This document shows, piece by piece, positions 2,225 through 23,468 of a stretch of 32,000 nucleotides of DNA. The position numbers and the translations under genes are program-made. A model generated the notes under the pieces. That model worked only from the letters and a program-made list of their open reading frames with translations, had not been told where the DNA came from and made no database searches. Positions within the stretch are counted from its first letter, which is position 1. Each line of letters begins with the position of its first letter. This stretch comes from Nitratidesulfovibrio vulgaris str. Hildenborough (lineage in GTDB: Bacteria > Desulfobacterota > Desulfovibrionia > Desulfovibrionales > Desulfovibrionaceae): the NCBI RefSeq assembly GCF_000195755.1, contig NC_002937.3, positions 1,920,001 through 1,952,000 of the forward strand, given 5' to 3'.

Positions 2225-2270
2225 TCTTGCAGGCGACAGTTTGAGCGGCTGTTGTCAACGCAAAGCCATG

Positions 2271-2621
2271 GGGGCGCACTGGTTTCGACGGGGACGTAGA
2301 AGCCGGAGTTGCAGGCCGAGGCGCCGCTGGCCTCGTAAAAAGCGGCACAAAAGTAATTGCCAACAATTACGACTACGCTCTGGCTGCTTAATTGACGGCC
2401 ACGTCGAACCGGTTCACGCCTGATAGACCGGTGAGACGTAACTTCATCAGGCTGGCATCTGACGGCGCTCGCCGCGAAGGGTGCGAGAAAAACAGGTGAG
2501 CTGGTCGAAGGTTGCCTGGTCGGGGGCGAAACCTGAGATGACGATTGTACTCGACCTAAGCCTGTAGACGCTTCGTGTGGAACATTCTCGGACGCGGGTT
2601 CGATTCCCGCCGCCTCCACCA
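2271..2621 (+). ncRNA. ssrA: tmRNA (transfer-messenger RNA, SsrA)
   Basis: 5' GGGGCGCACUGGUUUCGACGGGG acceptor/D-like start. Internal tag ORF GCC AAC AAT TAC GAC TAC GCT CTG GCT GCT TAA (2359-2391) encodes ANNYDYALAA. 3' T-arm and acceptor GGACGCGGGTTCGATTCCCGCCGCCTCCACCA end at 2621. Confidence 0.95.
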
Positions 2622-3241: not shown

Positions 3242-3415
3242 ATGCGCCCGTCAGAGGTGCTTGCTGTCTTCCGCATATCGCGCACGCAATTCTGCATGAG
3301 CTCCATGCCAAGCCCACAAAGACAGCCGCAGCGCGTTCTTGACGCGCGAAGTGGCCAAGGCGGCATGCGACAAGCTGACCCGGCGGAACAGACAGGAAAA
3401 CAACACGGCAGATGA
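3242..3415 (+). pseudogene. Possible degenerate AlpA-like HTH (prophage regulatory/excisionase family) remnant
   Basis: MRPSEVLAVFRISRTQF resembles the AlpA N-terminal HTH (..R..EV.....(I/L)SR.T.Y). The C-terminal conserved Trp region is not recognisable. Weak call. Confidence 0.2.
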
Positions 3416-3452
3416 AAACAGAACAGGCAGGGAGTTCATCCCTGCCTGTTCT
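3413..3452 (-). terminator. Terminator hairpin downstream of the MCP gene (copy 1 of twin hairpins)
   Basis: AGAACAGGCAGGGA-gttca-TCCCTGCCTGTTCT has a 14-bp stem (3420-3433/3439-3452). On the minus strand it is followed by gttttc. Confidence 0.6.
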
Positions 3453-3474: not shown

Positions 3475-5562
3475 CTAGGCGTTGTCGCGCTGCATGGTCT
3501 CGATGATGTTCTTCAGCCGCTGGGCCTGTTCGGCAAGCTCGGTCACAGCCTGTGCCGACTGCCGCATGGCGTCGCTGGTCTCGGCAGTGATGCGGTTTAT
3601 CTCGTCCACGGCATGGGCGATTTCTTCAGAGGCGGCAGACTGCTCTTCACTCGCGGTCGCGATAGAGCGCACCTGGTCTGAAGACTTGTCCGACAGCTGC
3701 ACGATGGTAGCCAGCGAGTTGCCCGCCTTCTCGGCCATGGTCGTCACGGTGACCACTTCCTTCACCGTCTGCTGCACCTGCTCGAAGCTCTCACGCGTTC
3801 CGGACTGTATACCGCCGATGGCGTCGCTCACCTCCTTGGTGGCAGCCATGGTCTTCTCAGCCAGCTTGCGCACCTCGTCAGCGACCACGGCAAAACCGCG
3901 TCCGGCCTCGCCAGCACGGGCCGCTTCGATGGCGGCGTTCAACGCGAGCAGGTTCGTCTGGTCGGCGATGTCATTGATGACGTTGATGATGCGGCCTATG
4001 TCCTCGGCCCTGCGGCCCAGTACGTCCATGTCCTGCTGCAACCGCTCGGCATACTGATTCACGGAGTTGATACCCTTCACCATGTCGCGCACGATGCCCG
4101 CCCCGACCTCTGCATTGTCCCGGGCATTGGCAGATGTCTCAGCGGCACTGCCAGCACTACGGGCCACCTCGAGCACGGTGGCGTTCATCTCTTCCATGGC
4201 CGTGGCGGTCTCTCCGGTGCGCTGACTCTGGAACTCCGCCCCGCGCGAGGCCTGTTCTATCTGTGCGGCAAGCTCTTCAGAGGCCGCGGAGATGACCTCG
4301 ACAATGCCCTGAAGGTCACGCGCCGCCTGCAACATGCCGTTCCGCTTGGCTTGTTCGGCGGCCTTGCGGGCTTCTTCGGCCTCTTCAAGGGCTGTCTTTG
4401 CCAGCGCAGTCTGCTGTTCGGCCTCCTGCGATTTGGCTTCAGCAGTCTTGATGAGCTCGCCAAGGCTTTCCACCATGCGCTTCAGGCTGCCATGCAGCGT
4501 CAGCAGTTCACCAGAGAACCGTGAACTCTCGGGCAACGCATTGAAGTTCCCTGCGGCGATGTCCCCAGATGCACGCACGAGCAGGTCGATGGGGTTGGCT
4601 ATCGTGCGGGAGATGAACCACGCACAGACCACAAGGATGAGGGCTATCACGGCACCCACTCCGACGATCTTCAGCACGATGGCCCGCGACTCTGCGAATA
4701 TCTCATCGGTGTCGATGATGACGACAAGCTTCCAGCCTTCAAAACCCGTCAGCACAGAGACCAGACGCTCCTTGCCGCCAAGCTTCGCCTCGAACACGCC
4801 TTCACGCATGGCGAATGCATCGCGGAAGAGGTTGTCCTGAATCTCTGTGACTTTCTTGAAGAGGTTGGCCGGGTCTTTCGAGTCTGAAAGCACCACGCCC
4901 GAATCTTCGATGAGCACCACATAACCGGTCTCGCCGATGCGAATGTTGGCAATCACCTTGGTCAGGGTAGAGAGGTTGATGTCGATGCCCGCGGCACCGA
5001 TGGTGCGCCCCGAAGCGTCGACGATGCGCCCCACGGCACTGGTGACAGCCTCGCCCGTGGTCGACTTGTAGGCGTCTGTCATCTGAATACCATCACCGGA
5101 CACCGCAGCCTGATACCAGCCCCTTTTGCGGGGGTCATACCCGGCAGGCATCTGCATCTCCGATCCGGCAAGAAAACCGCCGTCATCAAACGCTACGAAG
5201 GTTTCGTCGTAGTAGGGGTTCGTCTTCTTCAGCGGGGCAAGTACCTCGTAGGCACGCTTGGCGGCTTCCGACATTTCGCCGTAGCGCACGACCTTGGAAG
5301 ACGACTCATTCACATAACTGGGTACGGTACCCTTCGCCATCTTCATGGCGCTCAAGCTTGAAATGTAGGCTACCCCGTGCTCAGACTCGGAAAAGAATGT
5401 GACCAGGAACTCGTTGACACGCTTCAACTGACCAAGAGAACTCTCCTTGAAGTCCTTTTCGGCGTAACTACGCACTTGGTACGAGACGAGAAGGGAGATG
5501 CTGCCGATGGCGACCACGATAGCTGCAAGAAACGACAAGATGAGTTTGGCACGAATGGTCAT
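3475..5562 (-). CDS. Methyl-accepting chemotaxis protein, 695 aa (TM, dCache-type periplasmic sensor, TM, HAMP, MA signalling domain)
   Basis: dCache-like motif ([10 protein letters not shown]), HAMP, and the highly conserved hairpin region [40 protein letters not shown]. Confidence 0.9.
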
Positions 5563-5774: not shown

Positions 5775-5817
5775 TTCAAAGCAGAACAGGCAGGGATTCT
5801 CTCCCTGCCTGTTCTGC
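5775..5817 (-). terminator. Terminator hairpin of the CSD-Excalibur gene (copy 2 of twin hairpins)
   Basis: GCAGAACAGGCAGGGA-ttctc-TCCCTGCCTGTTCTGC (5781-5796/5802-5817) abuts the TAG stop and is followed by ttt on the minus strand. The inner 14 bp of the stem are identical to the hairpin at 3420-3452. Confidence 0.55.
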
Positions 5818-6623: not shown

Positions 6624-6672
6624 ACGCCATCGTGCGATTGCATGCACAAGGTGATGTGAGTAGAGATGTACG
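6624..6672 (+). repeat. Right copy of the imperfect 49-nt direct repeat
   Basis: acgccatcgtgcgattgcatgcacaaggtgatgtgagtagagatgtacg. A perfect TATAAT hexamer follows at 6673-6678. Confidence 0.55.
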
Positions 6673-11332: not shown

Positions 11333-11614
11333 ATGAACAAGAGCGAACTCATCAGAACCCTTTCGGAAGAGACCAACATCCCCATCGAAGAAGCCACCAT
11401 CGTAGTCAACACCTTCATCGACAACATGAAGGATTCGTTGCTGGCAGGCGACCGTGTCGAGATTCGCGGTTTCGGCAGCTTCAAGATCAAGGATTACGGC
11501 GGTTATTCCGGTCGCAACCCCAAAACCGGCAAGATGGTCGACGTCGAACCCAAGCGACTGCCCTTCTTCCGCGCAGGCAAGGAACTCAAAGAGTTCCTCA
11601 ATGAGCAGCAGTAG
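11333..11614 (+). CDS. ihfB: HU/IHF-family DNA-binding protein, IHF-beta-like, 93 aa
   Basis: MNKSELI...VEIRGFGSFKIK...GRNPKTGKMVDVEPKRLPFFRAGKELK matches the IHF/HU signature. RBS acggagactcgaATG. Confidence 0.85.
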   Translation: MNKSELIRTLSEETNIPIEEATIVVNTFIDNMKDSLLAGDRVEIRGFGSFKIKDYGGYSGRNPKTGKMVDVEPKRLPFFRAGKELKEFLNEQQ

Positions 11615-14674: not shown

Positions 14675-16990
14675 ATGAAATTCCGCAGTGCTGGTGCCCA
14701 GCTGGCAGCCTTCTCCTCACTACTCATCCTCGTCGTCATGCTCGCATTCATCGGCATTGCAATGTACTCTGCCTATTCCGGCGTTCTCGCCACCGAGACG
14801 CACAATATGGCCCAGTCCACCCGCCAGATAGAGACGTCCCTTGACGACTTCATCTCGGGGCACGCCCTCACCGCGAAAGGGCTGGCCCAACAGAAGACAG
14901 TTGCCAGCACCCTCGCCCTCGGAAGCGCCAGCCTTGTCGTCCGTGACCAGATTTCCCAGACGATCAAAGGCAATGCCGCCTATGCAGCCGTCATGGCATT
15001 CAACGACAAGGGCATCATCCTTGCCGGACTCACGTCAACCGGTGCCGACCTCACAGGCAAAACGCTTCCGGCTTCGGATATTTTGCCCAGCATCATGGGT
15101 GGCAAGGACTTCATCGGACGCGAAGCCTTCAGGGACAAGGACACGGGACGCGTCGTCATCACCGTGGCTTCACCCATTCTCACCGTCACCGGCGTTGCCG
15201 CAGGCGGCATCTGTATCGCCCTCGACATCGACACCTTCTCGAAGCGCTTCATCCAGCCCATGCGGTACGGCGCGGACGGCTATCCCTTTGTTCTTGATGC
15301 CAAGGGCATCATCGTTGCCCACCCTGACAGCAGCCTGCTGCTGAGTGATGTTTCACAACAGGCCTTCGTGCAGCGCGTCCTTTCAAACAGTGAGGGCGTG
15401 TTCGACTACGACTGGAAGGGGCGCACCAAAGTGCTTGCCAGTGTCACCTCGAAGGTCACCGGATGGAAAATCTGCGCCAGTGCCTATGAAGACGACATAG
15501 CAAGCATCGCCCGCAAGCAGCGCGACATCCTCGCCGTTGTAGGCGTCATCGCCCTTGGCATCATGGCTGCTGCCATCGCCCTAATGAGCCGCAGCATGGT
15601 CACGCGCCCCACGGCCCTGCTTTGCGAATACGCCAACGCCATCGCGGGGGGGAATCTCAACGCGCGCCTTGAGGGAACGTTCCGGCACGAACTTGGCACA
15701 CTCGCCGACGCCATGGGACGAATGGTCGAAGACCTGAAGCACCGCCTCGGATTCGCGCAGGGGGTGCTTAACGGCATGGTCGTTCCCGTGCTCATCGTCG
15801 ACCGCGAAGAACGCACCCTCTTCATCAACCAGCCCTGTCTGGACATGCTGCAACTGGACGGCACGCCCGAACAACAGCACGGCCGGACACTGGCAGAGGT
15901 GTTCTACAACGACCCCGGCCGCCAGACCGCCGTCGGACGCGCCATGAACGAGCGCAAGGCCATCACCAACATCGACGTGACCATAAAAGGCCACAAGGGT
16001 GGTGAAGTGCAGGTGCTGGCCAACGTGACCTACCTGGCAGACACCGACGGCAACATCTTCGGCGGTTTCTGCCTGTACCTTGACGTGACGGAAGCGCGTC
16101 GCCAGCAGGCCTTCATTGCGGAACAGAACAAGCGAATCGGCGAGGCCGCGACACAGGCCGAGACTGTCTCGCAAAACCTCTCAGAAGCGGCTGCGACCCT
16201 TGAAGGGCAGATTGATCAGGCGGCACGCGGTTCCGACATCCAGCGGCAGCGCACCGCCGAAGCGGCAACGGCCATGGAGCAGATGAACGCCTCTGTGATG
16301 GAGGTGGCCCGCAATGCGGCCGGTGCCGCCGAACAGGCCGAGACAGCACGTCACAAGGCGCAGGAAGGCGCCTCGGCACTCGACGATTCGGTTCGCACCA
16401 TACGCGAAGCCAAGCAGCTGGCCGACACCTTGCGCGAACACATGGGCGAACTCGGCAAACAGGCTGAGGACATCGGCCGCGTCCTCGATGTCATCGCCGA
16501 CATTGCCGACCAGACCAACCTGCTGGCACTGAACGCCGCCATCGAAGCTGCACGCGCCGGGGAAGCCGGACGGGGCTTTGCCGTTGTCGCCGACGAAGTA
16601 CGCAAACTGGCCGAGAAGACCATGAACGCGACCCGGGAGGTCGACACCGCGATCAAGGGTATCCAGACGAGCGCAAGGTCGAACATCGACAACACCCGCA
16701 AGGCCACCGACGCCATCGAAGTCGGCACGGGCATGGTGGGGAAGTCGGGCGAGATTCTGCGCGAGATAGTGCGGCTGGTGGAGACGACAGCCGACTCCGT
16801 GCGCAACATCGCCACGGCTTCAGAGGAACAGTCCGCTGCCAGCGAGCAGATTACCCGTTCCACCGACGAGATAAACCGTATCGCGTCTGAGACGGCAGAC
16901 GCCATGCAGCAGTCCGCACGGGCCGTGCAGGACGTGGCGAGCCTTGCCGATGAACTGCACGGTGTCATTGAGGAGATGCGCCGCCAGTGA
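14675..16990 (+). CDS. Methyl-accepting chemotaxis protein, 771 aa (TM, Cache-like sensor, TM, HAMP, PAS-like, MA domain)
   Basis: Internal ATG after RBS ggggga. TM helix [21 protein letters not shown]. Conserved signalling hairpin [40 protein letters not shown]. Confidence 0.9.
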
Positions 16991-17099: not shown

Positions 17100-18155
17100 C
17101 TACGGCACAAGCACTGTGACGGTGGCGGGTGCCCCGGTACCCCCGACAAGAGGAAGCGGTGCCACGATGATCAACGCCCCAGAAAGCGGCGCGGCATCGA
17201 GCGACCCCAGACATTCCACGACGGCACACCCCCGAGAGAGCGCCGTCCTGTTGCACGAGAACGACGCATCGTCGGGAGCATCCACCCCGTGCGTGTCGAT
17301 ACCGATGCCACCGACATGACGCTCGGCGCACAACCACTGCACAGCACCGGGTGCGAACGAAGGAAAGCGTATCGCATCCGAGTCGCCCGTCCTGCCGAAG
17401 TAGGCTCGCGGGTCATCCCAGTGGCGATGCCAGCCCGTATTGCAGGCCACGAAGGCGCCCCGTGGAATACGCCCGAAACGGTTTTCCCACGCTTCAAGGT
17501 CATCCATGCCGCAAGTGCACCCGCTATCCAGCCCCGCGCGCTTGCGCAAGTCGATAATGACAAGCGGTGCCACCAGCGGCCATGATGCCGCATCCTCCAG
17601 TGACACGCCATCGGGCAGGAAGGATGAGGGCGCGTTGACGTGGGTTCCGCTGTGCTCACCCATGCGAAAGGCCCGCAACCTGTACCCTTCGGTAGAGAAC
17701 GTGGCCACTGTCTCTGCCACCATGGAAGGATCGTCGGGCCAGAGTGGCATGGCAGGGGTTATGGGCTGCGTCGCGTCGATGACACGCCGCCACCTAGCCC
17801 ATCCGGCCCTGTCACACGCACGCCGCCCCGTATTCTCGGCAGGCCTGCGCTCAACGGGACAAGCGACGGAGGCATCAGGCGCAACATCACACTTCAAATC
17901 AACGCGTTCTGCACTGCCCTGAAGGGCCGGGCTGGCTTTCGAGGCGACCAGAGTCTCAGCGTCTGCGCATTCCTCAGGGAAGGCCATGACACGTCCGCCC
18001 GCTACACTTTCAGAACCACGTCCATGACCAGCTTCGCCCCCTGCAGCATGAAGGGCGCCGGTTGCCGACGATTCCTCTGCAGAACGGACCGTTCCATGAC
18101 CAGCCTGTACAGCGGCAGCCGCGTCCGGTGCCTTTGATGGCTTATACACTGTCAC
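17100..18155 (-). CDS. Putative cyclase / kynurenine-formamidase-like family protein with a long low-complexity N-terminal extension; start uncertain
   Basis: C-terminal 230 aa: VIDATQPI..MPLWPDDP...GEHSGTHVNAPSSF...GIGIDTHGVD, the PF04199-type pattern. A GTG at 18155 overlaps the aspA stop (GTGA). Alternative starts are 18149 and 17987. Confidence 0.7.
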   Translation of the reverse strand: MTVYKPSKAPDAAAAVQAGHGTVRSAEESSATGALHAAGGEAGHGRGSESVAGGRVMAFPEECADAETLVASKASPALQGSAERVDLKCDVAPDASVACPVERRPAENTGRRACDRAGWARWRRVIDATQPITPAMPLWPDDPSMVAETVATFSTEGYRLRAFRMGEHSGTHVNAPSSFLPDGVSLEDAASWPLVAPLVIIDLRKRAGLDSGCTCGMDDLEAWENRFGRIPRGAFVACNTGWHRHWDDPRAYFGRTGDSDAIRFPSFAPGAVQWLCAERHVGGIGIDTHGVDAPDDASFSCNRTALSRGCAVVECLGSLDAAPLSGALIIVAPLPLVGGTGAPATVTVLVP

Positions 18156-19558
18156 CTCCGGCGAACATCGCGTGGGGAGAGCATCTTGGCAGGGTCCAGA
18201 AGCTCTTCGAACTCCTCCGGCGTCATGATGCCCTCGGCCTGCAGCACCTCGGGCACGGAACGCCCGCTCTCCTGCGCCTCCTTGGCCAGTCGGGCGGCGG
18301 TCTCATAGCCTATCACCGGAGCAAGCGCCGTGACGACCCCGAGAGAATGCCGCACAAGCTCGAGGCACCGTTCGGGGTTGGCGGTGATGCCGACAACACA
18401 CCGCTCGCGCAGGGTGCGCGACGCCTTCGTGAGCATCTGCAACGACTGGAAGAGGTTGAGGGCGATGACAGGCAGAAAGACATTGAGTTCAAGCTGCCCC
18501 CCCTCGGCGGCGAAGGTCACCGTGAGGTCGTTGCCGATCACCTGATAGCAGACCTGATTGACCACTTCGGGAATGACGGGGTTGACCTTGCCCGGCATGA
18601 TGCTCGACCCCGGCTGCATGGGTGGCAGGTTGATTTCATGCAGACCGGTGAACGGCCCGGAAGCAAGCAGCCGCAGGTCGTTGCATATCTTCGACAGCTT
18701 CACGGCCACGCGTTTGAGCAGACCGGACAGCATGACATAGGCACCTGCGTCACTGGTCGCCTCCACGAGGTTGGCGGCGGTGACCAGAGGCAGACCGCAT
18801 ATATCCGCGAGACGTTCACGTACCAGCGAGGCATATCCCGGCACACTGTTGATGCCGGTGCCGACGGCCGTGGCACCTATGTTCACCTCGCACAGCAGAC
18901 GCGCAGCGTCATCAAGCCTGTCGATGTCCTCGCCGATGGTGACGCCCCATGCCGCGAATTCGGCACCCAGCGTGATGGGGACCGCGTCCTGCAACTGGGT
19001 GCGCGCCATCTTGATGACCCCGGCAAACTCGTCACCTTTCGCGTCGAAGGCGGCCCGCAGGTCGCGCAGCGCCGTTGACAACTCGCGTGCATACCAGACG
19101 AGGGCGATGCGTAGCGCCGTCGGATAGACATCGTTGGTCGACTGCGAGAGGTTCACGTGATTGAGAGGGCTTATGACCTCATAGCGCCCTTTCGGGTGCC
19201 CCAGGAGTTCCAGCGCCCGGTTGGCGATGACCTCGTTGGCGTTCATGTTCACCGAGGTTCCCGCCCCGCCCTGGATGACATCCACGGGAAACTGGTCGTC
19301 GAACCTGCCCGCGCGCACGTCGCGGCAGGCATTGACGATGGCTTCACCGACGCCCGCATCAAGCAGACCGAGTTCCATGTTGGCGAGGGCCGCAGCCTTC
19401 TTGACGGCGGCGAGTGCCTGTATGAACCGCGGAAACGTCGCCACCGGCATGGCCGTTATCTGGAAATTCTCCAAGGCACGCAATGTCTGCACGCCGTAGT
19501 AGACACCGGCAGGAACCCGTTTTTCTCCGAGGCTGTCACGTTCTGTCCTGTATTCCAT
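18152..19558 (-). CDS. aspA: Aspartate ammonia-lyase, 468 aa
   Basis: MEYRTERDSLGEKRVPAGVYYGVQTLRALENF, TQLQDAVPITLGAEF and the fumarate-lyase signature GSSIMPGKVNP. RBS ggagcgcgagATG at the internal start of ORF 18152..19639. Confidence 0.9.
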   Translation of the reverse strand: MEYRTERDSLGEKRVPAGVYYGVQTLRALENFQITAMPVATFPRFIQALAAVKKAAALANMELGLLDAGVGEAIVNACRDVRAGRFDDQFPVDVIQGGAGTSVNMNANEVIANRALELLGHPKGRYEVISPLNHVNLSQSTNDVYPTALRIALVWYARELSTALRDLRAAFDAKGDEFAGVIKMARTQLQDAVPITLGAEFAAWGVTIGEDIDRLDDAARLLCEVNIGATAVGTGINSVPGYASLVRERLADICGLPLVTAANLVEATSDAGAYVMLSGLLKRVAVKLSKICNDLRLLASGPFTGLHEINLPPMQPGSSIMPGKVNPVIPEVVNQVCYQVIGNDLTVTFAAEGGQLELNVFLPVIALNLFQSLQMLTKASRTLRERCVVGITANPERCLELVRHSLGVVTALAPVIGYETAARLAKEAQESGRSVPEVLQAEGIMTPEEFEELLDPAKMLSPRDVRRR

Positions 19559-19689
19559 CTCGCGCTCCGTATGCTTCCGATATTCCGTATGAAGCTCCGC
19601 GGTTGTGACAAGACACGCTTGTTCTTGCGTGTTCAGCAACAGCCTCGCACGAGGTCATCAAGAGTGCAACCATGCGCATCAAAACAGGA

Positions 19690-20052
19690 ACGCCCCGCAC
19701 CGTTTCCGGGGCGGGGCGCGACAGGCACACGACAACCCCGTTCGGGGTTGCGCCACCTGCGGCGGCCTGGCCGCCGGGTGGAAAGGCGCGGGGAACCCGT
19801 GCCTGCTCCCTTTGCCGGGTTGCAGACCACAGTCTGCAACATGAGACGCCCCGCACCGTTTCCGGGGCGGGGCGCGACAGGCGCACGACAACCCCGTTCG
19901 GGGTTGCGCCACCTGCGGCGGACAGGCCGCCGGGTGGAAAGGCACGGCACGCGGTCGCTCACGGCGCGGGGAACCCGCGCCTGCTCCCTTTGCCGGGTTG
20001 CAGACCACAGTCTGCAACATGAGACGCCCCGCACCGTTTCCGGGGCGGGGCG
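19690..20052. repeat. Tandem repeat, 2.2 copies of a 156/178-bp hairpin-dense unit, in the ppiB-aspA spacer
   Basis: Unit starts (ACGCCCCGCACCGTTTCCGGGGCGGGGCG) are at 19690, 19846 and 20024. Copies 1 and 2 differ by a few substitutions plus a 22-bp insertion (19943-19964 region). Each unit contains at least 5 GC-rich stem-loops. Confidence 0.9.
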
Positions 20053-20073
20053 TCTCATGACAAACCTGCAGGG

Positions 20074-20673
20074 CTATTTCAGTACGGTAGCCTTGGTGAT
20101 GACCACAGGAGTACGCGGAACATTCTCATGGAAGCCATAGCTGCCAGTGGGAACGCCCTTGATCTTGTCGACAACGTCAGTGCCTTCAACCACACGCCCG
20201 AAGACGGCGTAGCCCCAACCCTGCCCCGCAGGTGCACGGAAGTTGAGGAAGTCGTTGTCCTTCACGTTGATGAAGAACTGGGCCGTGGCGGAATGAGGGT
20301 CGTTGGTGCGCGCCATGGCCAGCGTGTACTTCTTGTTGCCAAGACCGTTGGACGCCTCGTTTTCGATAGGGGCGCGGGTCTTCTTCTCGACCATGTTGGC
20401 GTCGTAGCCACCACCCTGAATCATGAAGCCATCCATGACGCGATGGAAGATGGTGCCGTCATAGTGACCTTCTTCCACGTACTGGCGGAAGTTAGCGGCG
20501 GTCTTGGGAGCCTTTTCATCGTCGAGTTCGATGACGATGTCACCCATGCTGGTTTCGAGCTTGATCATTGTATGGCCTCCATTGACCGGTGCGGCATACC
20601 CCTGCGGTGAAACACAGAGAATGCCCGCGACCAGTGCGATGATCATGAGAATGTCACGCATGGCACTGCTCAC
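20074..20673 (-). CDS. Cyclophilin-type peptidyl-prolyl cis-trans isomerase with a signal peptide, about 195-199 aa
   Basis: Signal peptide [20 protein letters not shown]. Cyclophilin core [14 protein letters not shown]...[14 protein letters not shown]...SATAQFFIN. Confidence 0.9.

Positions 20674-20870: not shown

Positions 20871-23468
<2,598 letters not shown>

Follow-up and report, generated by a model that had tools for sequence, protein, structure and literature searches.

A tandem repeat of variable copy number around the predicted ppiB terminator of Nitratidesulfovibrio vulgaris

Three neighboring genes are found on the minus strand of the window, i.e., the whole 32-kb stretch of Nitratidesulfovibrio vulgaris DNA that was analyzed. 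These are clpB (20871-23468), identified as an open reading frame (ORF); ppiB (20074-20661), an ORF with a Pfam Pro_isomerase domain that encodes a peptidyl-prolyl isomerase of 195 aa; and aspA (18152-19558), an ORF that encodes an aspartate ammonia-lyase of 468 aa, as indicated by its Pfam Lyase_1 and FumaraseC_C domains and by the names of its homologues. Identical ClpB, PpiB, and AspA proteins are encoded on CP000527.1, CP116246.1, and many metagenome/SRA assemblies. The spacer between ppiB and aspA harbors a tandem repeat, with ppiB upstream and aspA downstream of it, both genes being read on the minus strand, hereafter the sense strand. No paper mentioning DVU1871-1873 was found in the literature, nor any on such a repeat in D. 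vulgaris. Downstream of aspA lies a cyclase-family gene (17100-18155, minus strand) that is called with 349, 295, 226, or 187 aa depending on the strain. Its N-terminal extension is of low complexity and overlaps the aspA stop, and in every strain the cyclase-family gene ends equally far from the aspA stop; the long extension is probably not translated.

A repeat search of the window returned two pairs of direct repeats in the ppiB-aspA spacer, one of 102 nt (19690-19791 and 19846-19947, 96% identity, spacing 156) and one of 90 nt (19785-19874 and 19963-20052, 99% identity, spacing 178), while the array was not listed by Tandem Repeats Finder. Unit 1 (19690-19845) is 156 bp long and corresponds to the 178-bp unit minus 22 bp; unit 2 (19846-20023) has the 178 bp that are typical of the species; and a partial third copy of 29 bp (20024-20052), proximal to ppiB, consists of hairpin H alone. 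Outside the 22-bp indel, units 1 and 2 differ at 4 of 156 positions. The tandem units of 156 and 178 bp, the 29-bp partial copy, and the identity of about 97% described by the first-pass annotation are thus borne out by the repeat search. The repeat does lie in the ppiB-aspA spacer, as stated there, but does not fill it, since it accounts for 363 of the 515 bases. Head-to-tail direct repeats with a unit of about 10-200 bp, as found here, are the arrangement by which a variable-number tandem repeat (VNTR) or minisatellite is recognized.

Along the array, the order is terminator hairpin, 149-bp body B, hairpin, body, and hairpin, the sequence between H copies being the same 149-bp (or 127-bp) body every time. 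A CRISPR array was rejected on that account, the H copies being separated by the same body and not by unique spacers. Read on the sense strand, the ppiB stop is followed by H', which has an extended stem and no U-tract, and then by one to three modules, each made of the 149-bp B and H. The last H has a U-tract, and the unique aspA upstream region begins 3' of the array. Comparison between strains places this upstream region (19559-19679, minus strand), the presumed promoter and 5' UTR, outside the repeat, and the 131 bp beside aspA (19559-19689) are unique sequence that is almost invariant between strains.

Five GC-rich hairpins are found in each full unit, at 19691-19718 (H1), 19733-19750 (H2), 19760-19776 (H3), 19785-19803 (H4), and 19819-19840 (H5) in unit 1, and at 19847-19874, 19889-19906, 19916-19932, 19963-19981, and 19997-20018, respectively, in unit 2. 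At least five GC-rich stem-loops per unit had been annotated at first, and all five are present. The first of them is longer than claimed, with 11 pairs including one A/G mismatch (CGCCCCGCaCCG-TTTC-CGGgGCGGGGCG). H5 is a perfect 9-4-9 palindrome (GTTGCAGAC-N4-GTCTGCAAC) with a lower GC content than the other hairpins, and its arms are invariant in 18 of 18 units. Around the ppiB-proximal H, inverted-repeat search and folding delineate an extended hairpin on the minus strand, CATGAGACG...CGTCTCATG (20018-20059). The terminal hairpin of the first-pass annotation is present, with arms of 19 nt (20018-20036 and 20041-20059) that are 95% complementary. It folds at -45.6 kcal/mol (z = -8.45) and is followed by GUUGCAGAC, without a U-tract on the sense strand.

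Regarding variation within the species, the ppiB-aspA spacer was taken from every fetched locus, which gave 13 distinct versions. One unit is present in L007 and L015, where the spacer measures 359 bp from the ppiB stop to the aspA start; two units are found in the window, L002, L009, L014, and L017, with a spacer of 515 or 537 bp; and three units in L008 (strain DP4, 715 bp) and L006 (CP116246.1, 718 bp). The copy number is polymorphic within the species, from one to three units, which is the other property expected of a VNTR. Over the 13 distinct versions, the 151 bp on the aspA side (19539-19689) contain one SNP, and the 69 bases on the ppiB side show one common polymorphism.

Among the distinct units, 16 of 18 are at least 178 bp long and contain the 22-bp segment GGCACGGCACGCGGTCGCTCAC, which occupies 19941-19962 in unit 2 (columns 96-117 of the alignment) and is absent from unit 1. 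Apart from the window, only assemblies whose flanks are nearly identical to its own (L001, L005, and L010) have the 156-bp unit. Since 178 bp is the usual unit length, the difference corresponds to a 22-bp deletion in copy 1, with GGC at either end of its junction, and not to the insertion in copy 2 that had been proposed. At column 38, 8 of 10 first units have A and all 9 later units have G. The sequence of a unit reflects its place in the array, which indicates that the array is older than the divergence of the strains. The single unit of L007 shows no difference from unit 1 of L009, a version with two units, and that of L015 is a chimera, its 5' part resembling a first unit and its 3' part a last unit. 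Judged by their sequences, the versions with one unit appear to derive from those with two by deletion or recombination, and copy number would shift by unequal exchange or slippage.

Several assemblies are interrupted at this locus. Gaps of 100 N lie within the repeat in L001 (at about 11435-11534) and in L005/L012, and contigs stopping exactly at hairpin H are found among the ends of L003, L010, L018, L019, and L021; such breaks and gaps in short-read assemblies are to be expected of a tandem repeat that exceeds the k-mer. In L010, unlike in the window, a 156-type unit directly adjoins ppiB. Either copy number or unit order may differ there despite identical flanking genes, or the assembly may have collapsed the repeat. 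The flanking genes of L001, L005, and L010 are all identical to those of the window, and the array may even change within the time span of laboratory culture.

On the sense strand, the aspA-proximal H (19690-19718) is followed by the T-rich tail UUCCUGUUUUG (19680-19689, minus strand), and it is only at this hairpin of the array that a U-tract is kept. When the minus strand of 19672-19722 is folded, a hairpin of -26.1 kcal/mol is obtained, then UUCCUGUUUUGAUG. By this folding, the hairpin and its tail fit the definition of a predicted intrinsic terminator. They were recognized through folding and through comparison with relatives, the aspA-proximal H not being called by the terminator consensus scan, for which an internal mismatch of the stem is probably the cause.

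Three related species, with AspA proteins of 87%, 79%, and 76% identity, keep the order clpB-ppiB-aspA-cyclase, and their ppiB-aspA spacers of about 250-330 bp have no repeat. Each of them has a single GC-rich hairpin with a U-tract just 3' of ppiB, on the sense strand. In the closest relative (L022), the terminator stem ACGCCCCGC/GCGGGGCGT is that of the H opening every unit, and the aspA-proximal H and the sequence beside it align with the hairpin, loop, and flank of the L023 terminator. When the N. vulgaris spacer is locally aligned to those of the relatives, only the terminator aligns, body B being without similarity. From this comparison, the aspA-proximal H together with its T-rich tail is predicted to be the ancestral intrinsic terminator of ppiB. 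On this basis, the repeat begins and ends with this ancestral hairpin. The 149-bp body B is specific to the N. vulgaris lineage and showed no detectable similarity to any other sequence searched; given that it has no counterpart in the relatives' spacers, it arrived or arose in that lineage. The array resembles an intrinsic terminator in that H and its tail stand, as in the relatives, immediately 3' of ppiB on the sense strand. It differs from their single terminators in that the hairpin is present in two to four copies, the last alone with a U-tract, and that 149 bp of additional, hairpin-rich sequence separate the copies.

Other copies of the unit were sought in several collections. A unit profile (nhmmer) detected only this locus in the 32-kb window and 228 kb of loci, a weak match in L024 corresponding to a plain CGGCGG/CCGCCG hairpin. 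Motif searches likewise placed the hairpin motifs at this locus only in the window, with none in 100 shuffles. No genuine second copy was detected in plasmids (PLSDB), phages, or viral contigs. Exact scans of a genome collection with the H5 22-mer and the H 24-mer gave no match, not even this locus, the window's own genome being probably masked or absent in that collection; having missed the locus itself, these scans are weak evidence against dispersal. In the metagenome scan, the body pattern gave no match though the JGI contig L007 carries the body, which means that the scanned collection lacks that contig, and the H 24-mer retrieved this locus again, at the end of a contig (L021), as well as a lone hairpin in L020. 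Taken together, the collections searched included no complete N. vulgaris genome and leave room for diverged copies elsewhere. The REP/BIME-like dispersed family suggested by the first-pass annotation has no second locus in any search made. This locus appears to be the only one with the unit, and the copy number ranges from one to three among isolates, which is largely the outcome that the first-pass annotation had named as refuting its own reading.

The lone hairpin in L020 (4264-4287) is an identical 24-nt sequence, CCCCGCACCGTTTCCGGGGCGGGG, on a 270-kb metagenome contig of another bacterium. It stands between convergent ORF ends that, by eye, are response-regulator-like and with a CxxCH haem motif, respectively. 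It looks like a convergence of GC-rich terminator hairpins and not like homology.

With regard to regulatory signals, Rfam 15 matched only the tmRNA at 2270-2621 over the window, and with E-values up to 10 the best scores were 10-23 bits against thresholds of 40-99, so that no Rfam family fits the array. The sigma-70 consensus scan found no promoter-like site on either strand, the aspA upstream region included. A sigma-54 promoter was rejected, as no GG-N10-GC could be seen by eye in the unit on either strand. A riboswitch or attenuator of aspA was also rejected, being absent in the relatives, with a variable copy number and a terminator that is ancestral to ppiB.

The explanation that probably holds is that of a single-locus, species-specific VNTR (minisatellite) around the ppiB intrinsic terminator of N. 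vulgaris. Transcription of ppiB would traverse H' and then between one and three B+H modules before stopping mainly at the last H and its U-tract, with a predicted main 3' end near 19680-19690 in the window; the resulting 3' UTR would be long, about 230-590 nt, and dense in stable hairpins. The array would act as terminator and insulator ahead of a separately promoted aspA, and perhaps also as a barrier to 3' exonucleases guarding the 3' end of the ppiB mRNA in a REP-like manner. The first proposal of a transcriptional insulator or terminator between ppiB and aspA keeps some basis to this extent, since the array sits on the predicted ppiB terminator. Copy number would drift by unequal recombination or replication slippage between identical copies of H (or of the whole unit), and the array itself would be close to neutral. 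Selection for a functional terminator may account for part of the maintenance of its hairpins, and hairpin-templated correction of the two stem arms for another part.

The main rival of the minisatellite explanation, considered unlikely, is that of a structured RNA module read from the sense strand and kept by selection, either a 3'-UTR stabilizer of the ppiB mRNA or a 3'-UTR-derived sRNA. Its position 3' of ppiB and its end in a predicted terminator would suit such a module, and the array folds far better than shuffled sequence, with z = -9.8 on the minus strand and z = -9.1 on the plus strand. In the comparison of structures, for which the sample was 18 distinct units that are all close relatives, pairing reaches 98.9% over the 41 pairs of the five core hairpins. 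A single pair, columns 121/133, varies on both sides (G-C in 9, G-U in 4, and A-U in 5 units), which is the only compensatory change. It probably reflects one historical event, and the covariation score was reached by 10 of 500 shuffles, for sequences that are closely related. Hairpin-templated correction is an established mechanism, and it could yield such a compensatory pair without selection on an RNA.

The distribution of substitutions can also be taken in favor of a sense-strand RNA. Variable positions gather in the loops (8 of 20; columns 14, 17, 51, 77, 79, 80, 126, and 162 of the unit alignment), compared with 9 of 82 in the stems and 7 of 74 in the linkers (Fisher, p = 0.0046 for loops vs stems and p = 0.003 for loops vs linkers). 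Across the 18 units, loops are thus about four times more variable than stems or linkers. The H3 loop alone exists as CCTGG, ACAGG, and TCTAG (window loops 19766-19770 and 19922-19926). This excess hints that the hairpins truly form in vivo and that the element is perhaps not purely neutral. Loops may be the only free positions of a larger fold, or mutational hot spots in extruded hairpins. However, linkers are as conserved as stems, contrary to what stem-specific selection would produce, the copy number and the 22-bp indel vary freely, and the relatives, whose gene order is identical, lack the array, which matches no Rfam family. Folding and covariation, which the first-pass annotation had proposed as checks, yield a strong fold on both strands together with one compensatory pair only. 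The structured sRNA it had suggested is not supported, with a single covarying pair and no promoter-like site on either strand.

A related reading, held to be quite unlikely, is that body B is a lineage-specific functional module. It would be either a 3'-UTR RNA in which the dose of copies tunes ppiB mRNA stability or aspA read-through, or a new element that targets and duplicates terminator hairpins. If so, the excess of loop substitutions (8 of 20 vs about 10% elsewhere) would mean that the hairpins extrude or fold in vivo.

It can also be hypothesized that B, with or without H, is a MITE-like or REP-like non-autonomous mobile element whose insertion at the terminator hairpin of ppiB was followed by tandem amplification. 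Two direct copies of H flank B even in one-unit strains, B has no counterpart in the relatives' spacers, and its richness in palindromes recalls REP/BIME and related elements. Yet the ends of B bear no terminal inverted repeats, the hairpins being all internal, and the flanking duplication is 29 bp (hairpin H). Typical target-site duplications are much shorter than this. The absence of a second copy from the window, the 228 kb of loci, PLSDB, phages, viral contigs, and the metagenome and genome scans, as well as the absence of homologues of the spurious ORFs at other loci, makes this scenario improbable. Compared with a MITE, the array has neither terminal inverted repeats nor a short target-site duplication, nor copies at unrelated loci in searches that comprised no complete N. 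vulgaris genome.

A structured sRNA read from the plus strand, i.e., antisense to both ppiB and aspA, is very doubtful. In its favor, the plus-strand reading of H4 gives G-C, G-U, and A-U pairs and in no case A-C, and the change of A10 to T in H1 would make G-U on that strand only. Conversely, pairs 95/111, 117/144, 124/135, 154/179, and 159/174 (minus alignment) give G-U only on the minus strand, so that G-U intermediates favor the plus strand at some sites and the minus strand at others. The number of broken pair cells according to RNAalifold over the 18 units is similar as well, with 7 of 1016 for the plus and 9 of 1062 for the minus strand. The hairpins show no strand preference, both strands being equally compatible, and the first argument for a plus-strand RNA, which rested on one G-U state, does not stand against this equal breakage. 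Moreover, the plus strand has no promoter-like site, and no U-tract follows any of its hairpins.

Equally far from the evidence is the idea that palindromes such as H5 are candidate operators and that the array provides a variable-dose platform for a regulator of aspA. The array is upstream of aspA, and the perfect, invariant, and less GC-rich H5 would suit such a role. On the other hand, some 260 bp, with the terminator among them, separate the nearest H5 from the aspA start, relatives with the same gene arrangement do without the array, its copy number varies, and no match to a regulator or motif is known.

That the repeat encodes a protein has almost no likelihood left. Long ORFs do span it on both strands, and one of them is annotated on CP000527.1 as 'hypothetical protein Dvul_1292 [Nitratidesulfovibrio vulgaris DP4]', of 205 aa, at 3640-4257 of L008 (minus strand, which is the plus strand of the window over the repeat). 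Spurious long ORFs are to be expected at a GC content of 61%. Because the unit cannot be divided by 3 (178 = 3 x 59 + 1), the reading frame shifts from one unit to the next, the Dvul_1292 ORF reading three units in three frames, and the changes in copy number and of 22 bp break the frame between strains. No Pfam match was found for this ORF, nor any homologue but itself among 5.8 billion proteins, besides low-complexity matches. The 141-aa ORF of the minus strand likewise retrieved only itself and low-complexity matches among 1.84 billion representatives, and an exact look-up gave no record. A protein-coding repeat was consequently rejected for lack of a unit length in multiples of 3, of a conserved frame, and of homologues, and Dvul_1292 is, from its sequence, almost certainly a spurious gene call. 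That the repeat is non-coding, is not a CRISPR, and matches no known riboswitch was already the view of the first-pass annotation, with which the evidence from frame, Pfam, Rfam, and body agrees.

Among known systems, the array is similar to mycobacterial MIRU-VNTRs, which are also head-to-tail repeats in a same-strand intergenic spacer with slightly different units and a strain-variable copy number. Whereas MIRUs are a family with members at dozens of loci, the array was found at one locus only, its unit is longer (178 bp), and each of its copies opens with the terminator hairpin of the upstream gene. Likeness can also be noted to REP/BIME and to the pneumococcal BOX elements, as regards the extragenic location, the GC-rich and palindromic sequence, the possible 3' UTR site, the stable hairpins, and the local tandem arrangement. 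REP, BIME, and BOX elements plausibly protect the upstream mRNA and aid termination, and they are dispersed, with tens to hundreds of copies per genome; the REP unit is an imperfect palindrome of about 20-40 bp, linked to RAYT transposases. Unlike these dispersed elements, the array unit has no second copy detected in the collections searched, and compared with REP it is several times longer, with 178 bp and five different palindromes. The array is an undescribed example of a well-known type of element and not a new class of element.

The practical value of the array is modest. It can serve as a typing marker for N. vulgaris strains and laboratory lineages by means of spacers of 359, 515, 537, 715, and 718 bp, it accounts for the contig breaks and the 100-N gaps in assemblies at this locus, and it calls for a correction of the annotation of DP4, where the hypothetical protein Dvul_1292 is almost certainly spurious. 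Under the minisatellite explanation, it would be a clean case of a terminator hairpin used as the recombination handle of a tandem array. The natural series of one, two, and three copies makes it possible to relate stacked hairpins in a 3' UTR to termination and mRNA stability in a model sulfate reducer.

Other repeated sequences were observed elsewhere in the window. The tmRNA gene (2270-2621, plus strand; 198.7 bits with Rfam) has, according to ARAGORN, the tag peptide ANNYDYALAA. Just downstream of it begins the first copy of a 46-nt direct repeat (2716-2761 and 6624-6669, 76% identical), and near-identical hairpins, AGAACAGGCAGGGA...TCCCTGCCTGTTCT (87%), are located about 2.3 kb apart at 3415-3452 and 5778-5815. 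Duplicated terminators are one possible reading of these repeats near the tmRNA gene, and the ends of an island integrated at ssrA another. Finally, an inverted repeat of 255 nt with 75% complementarity, its arms located 12.3 kb apart at 3805-4059 and 16412-16666, probably corresponds to segments of paralogous genes on opposite strands.
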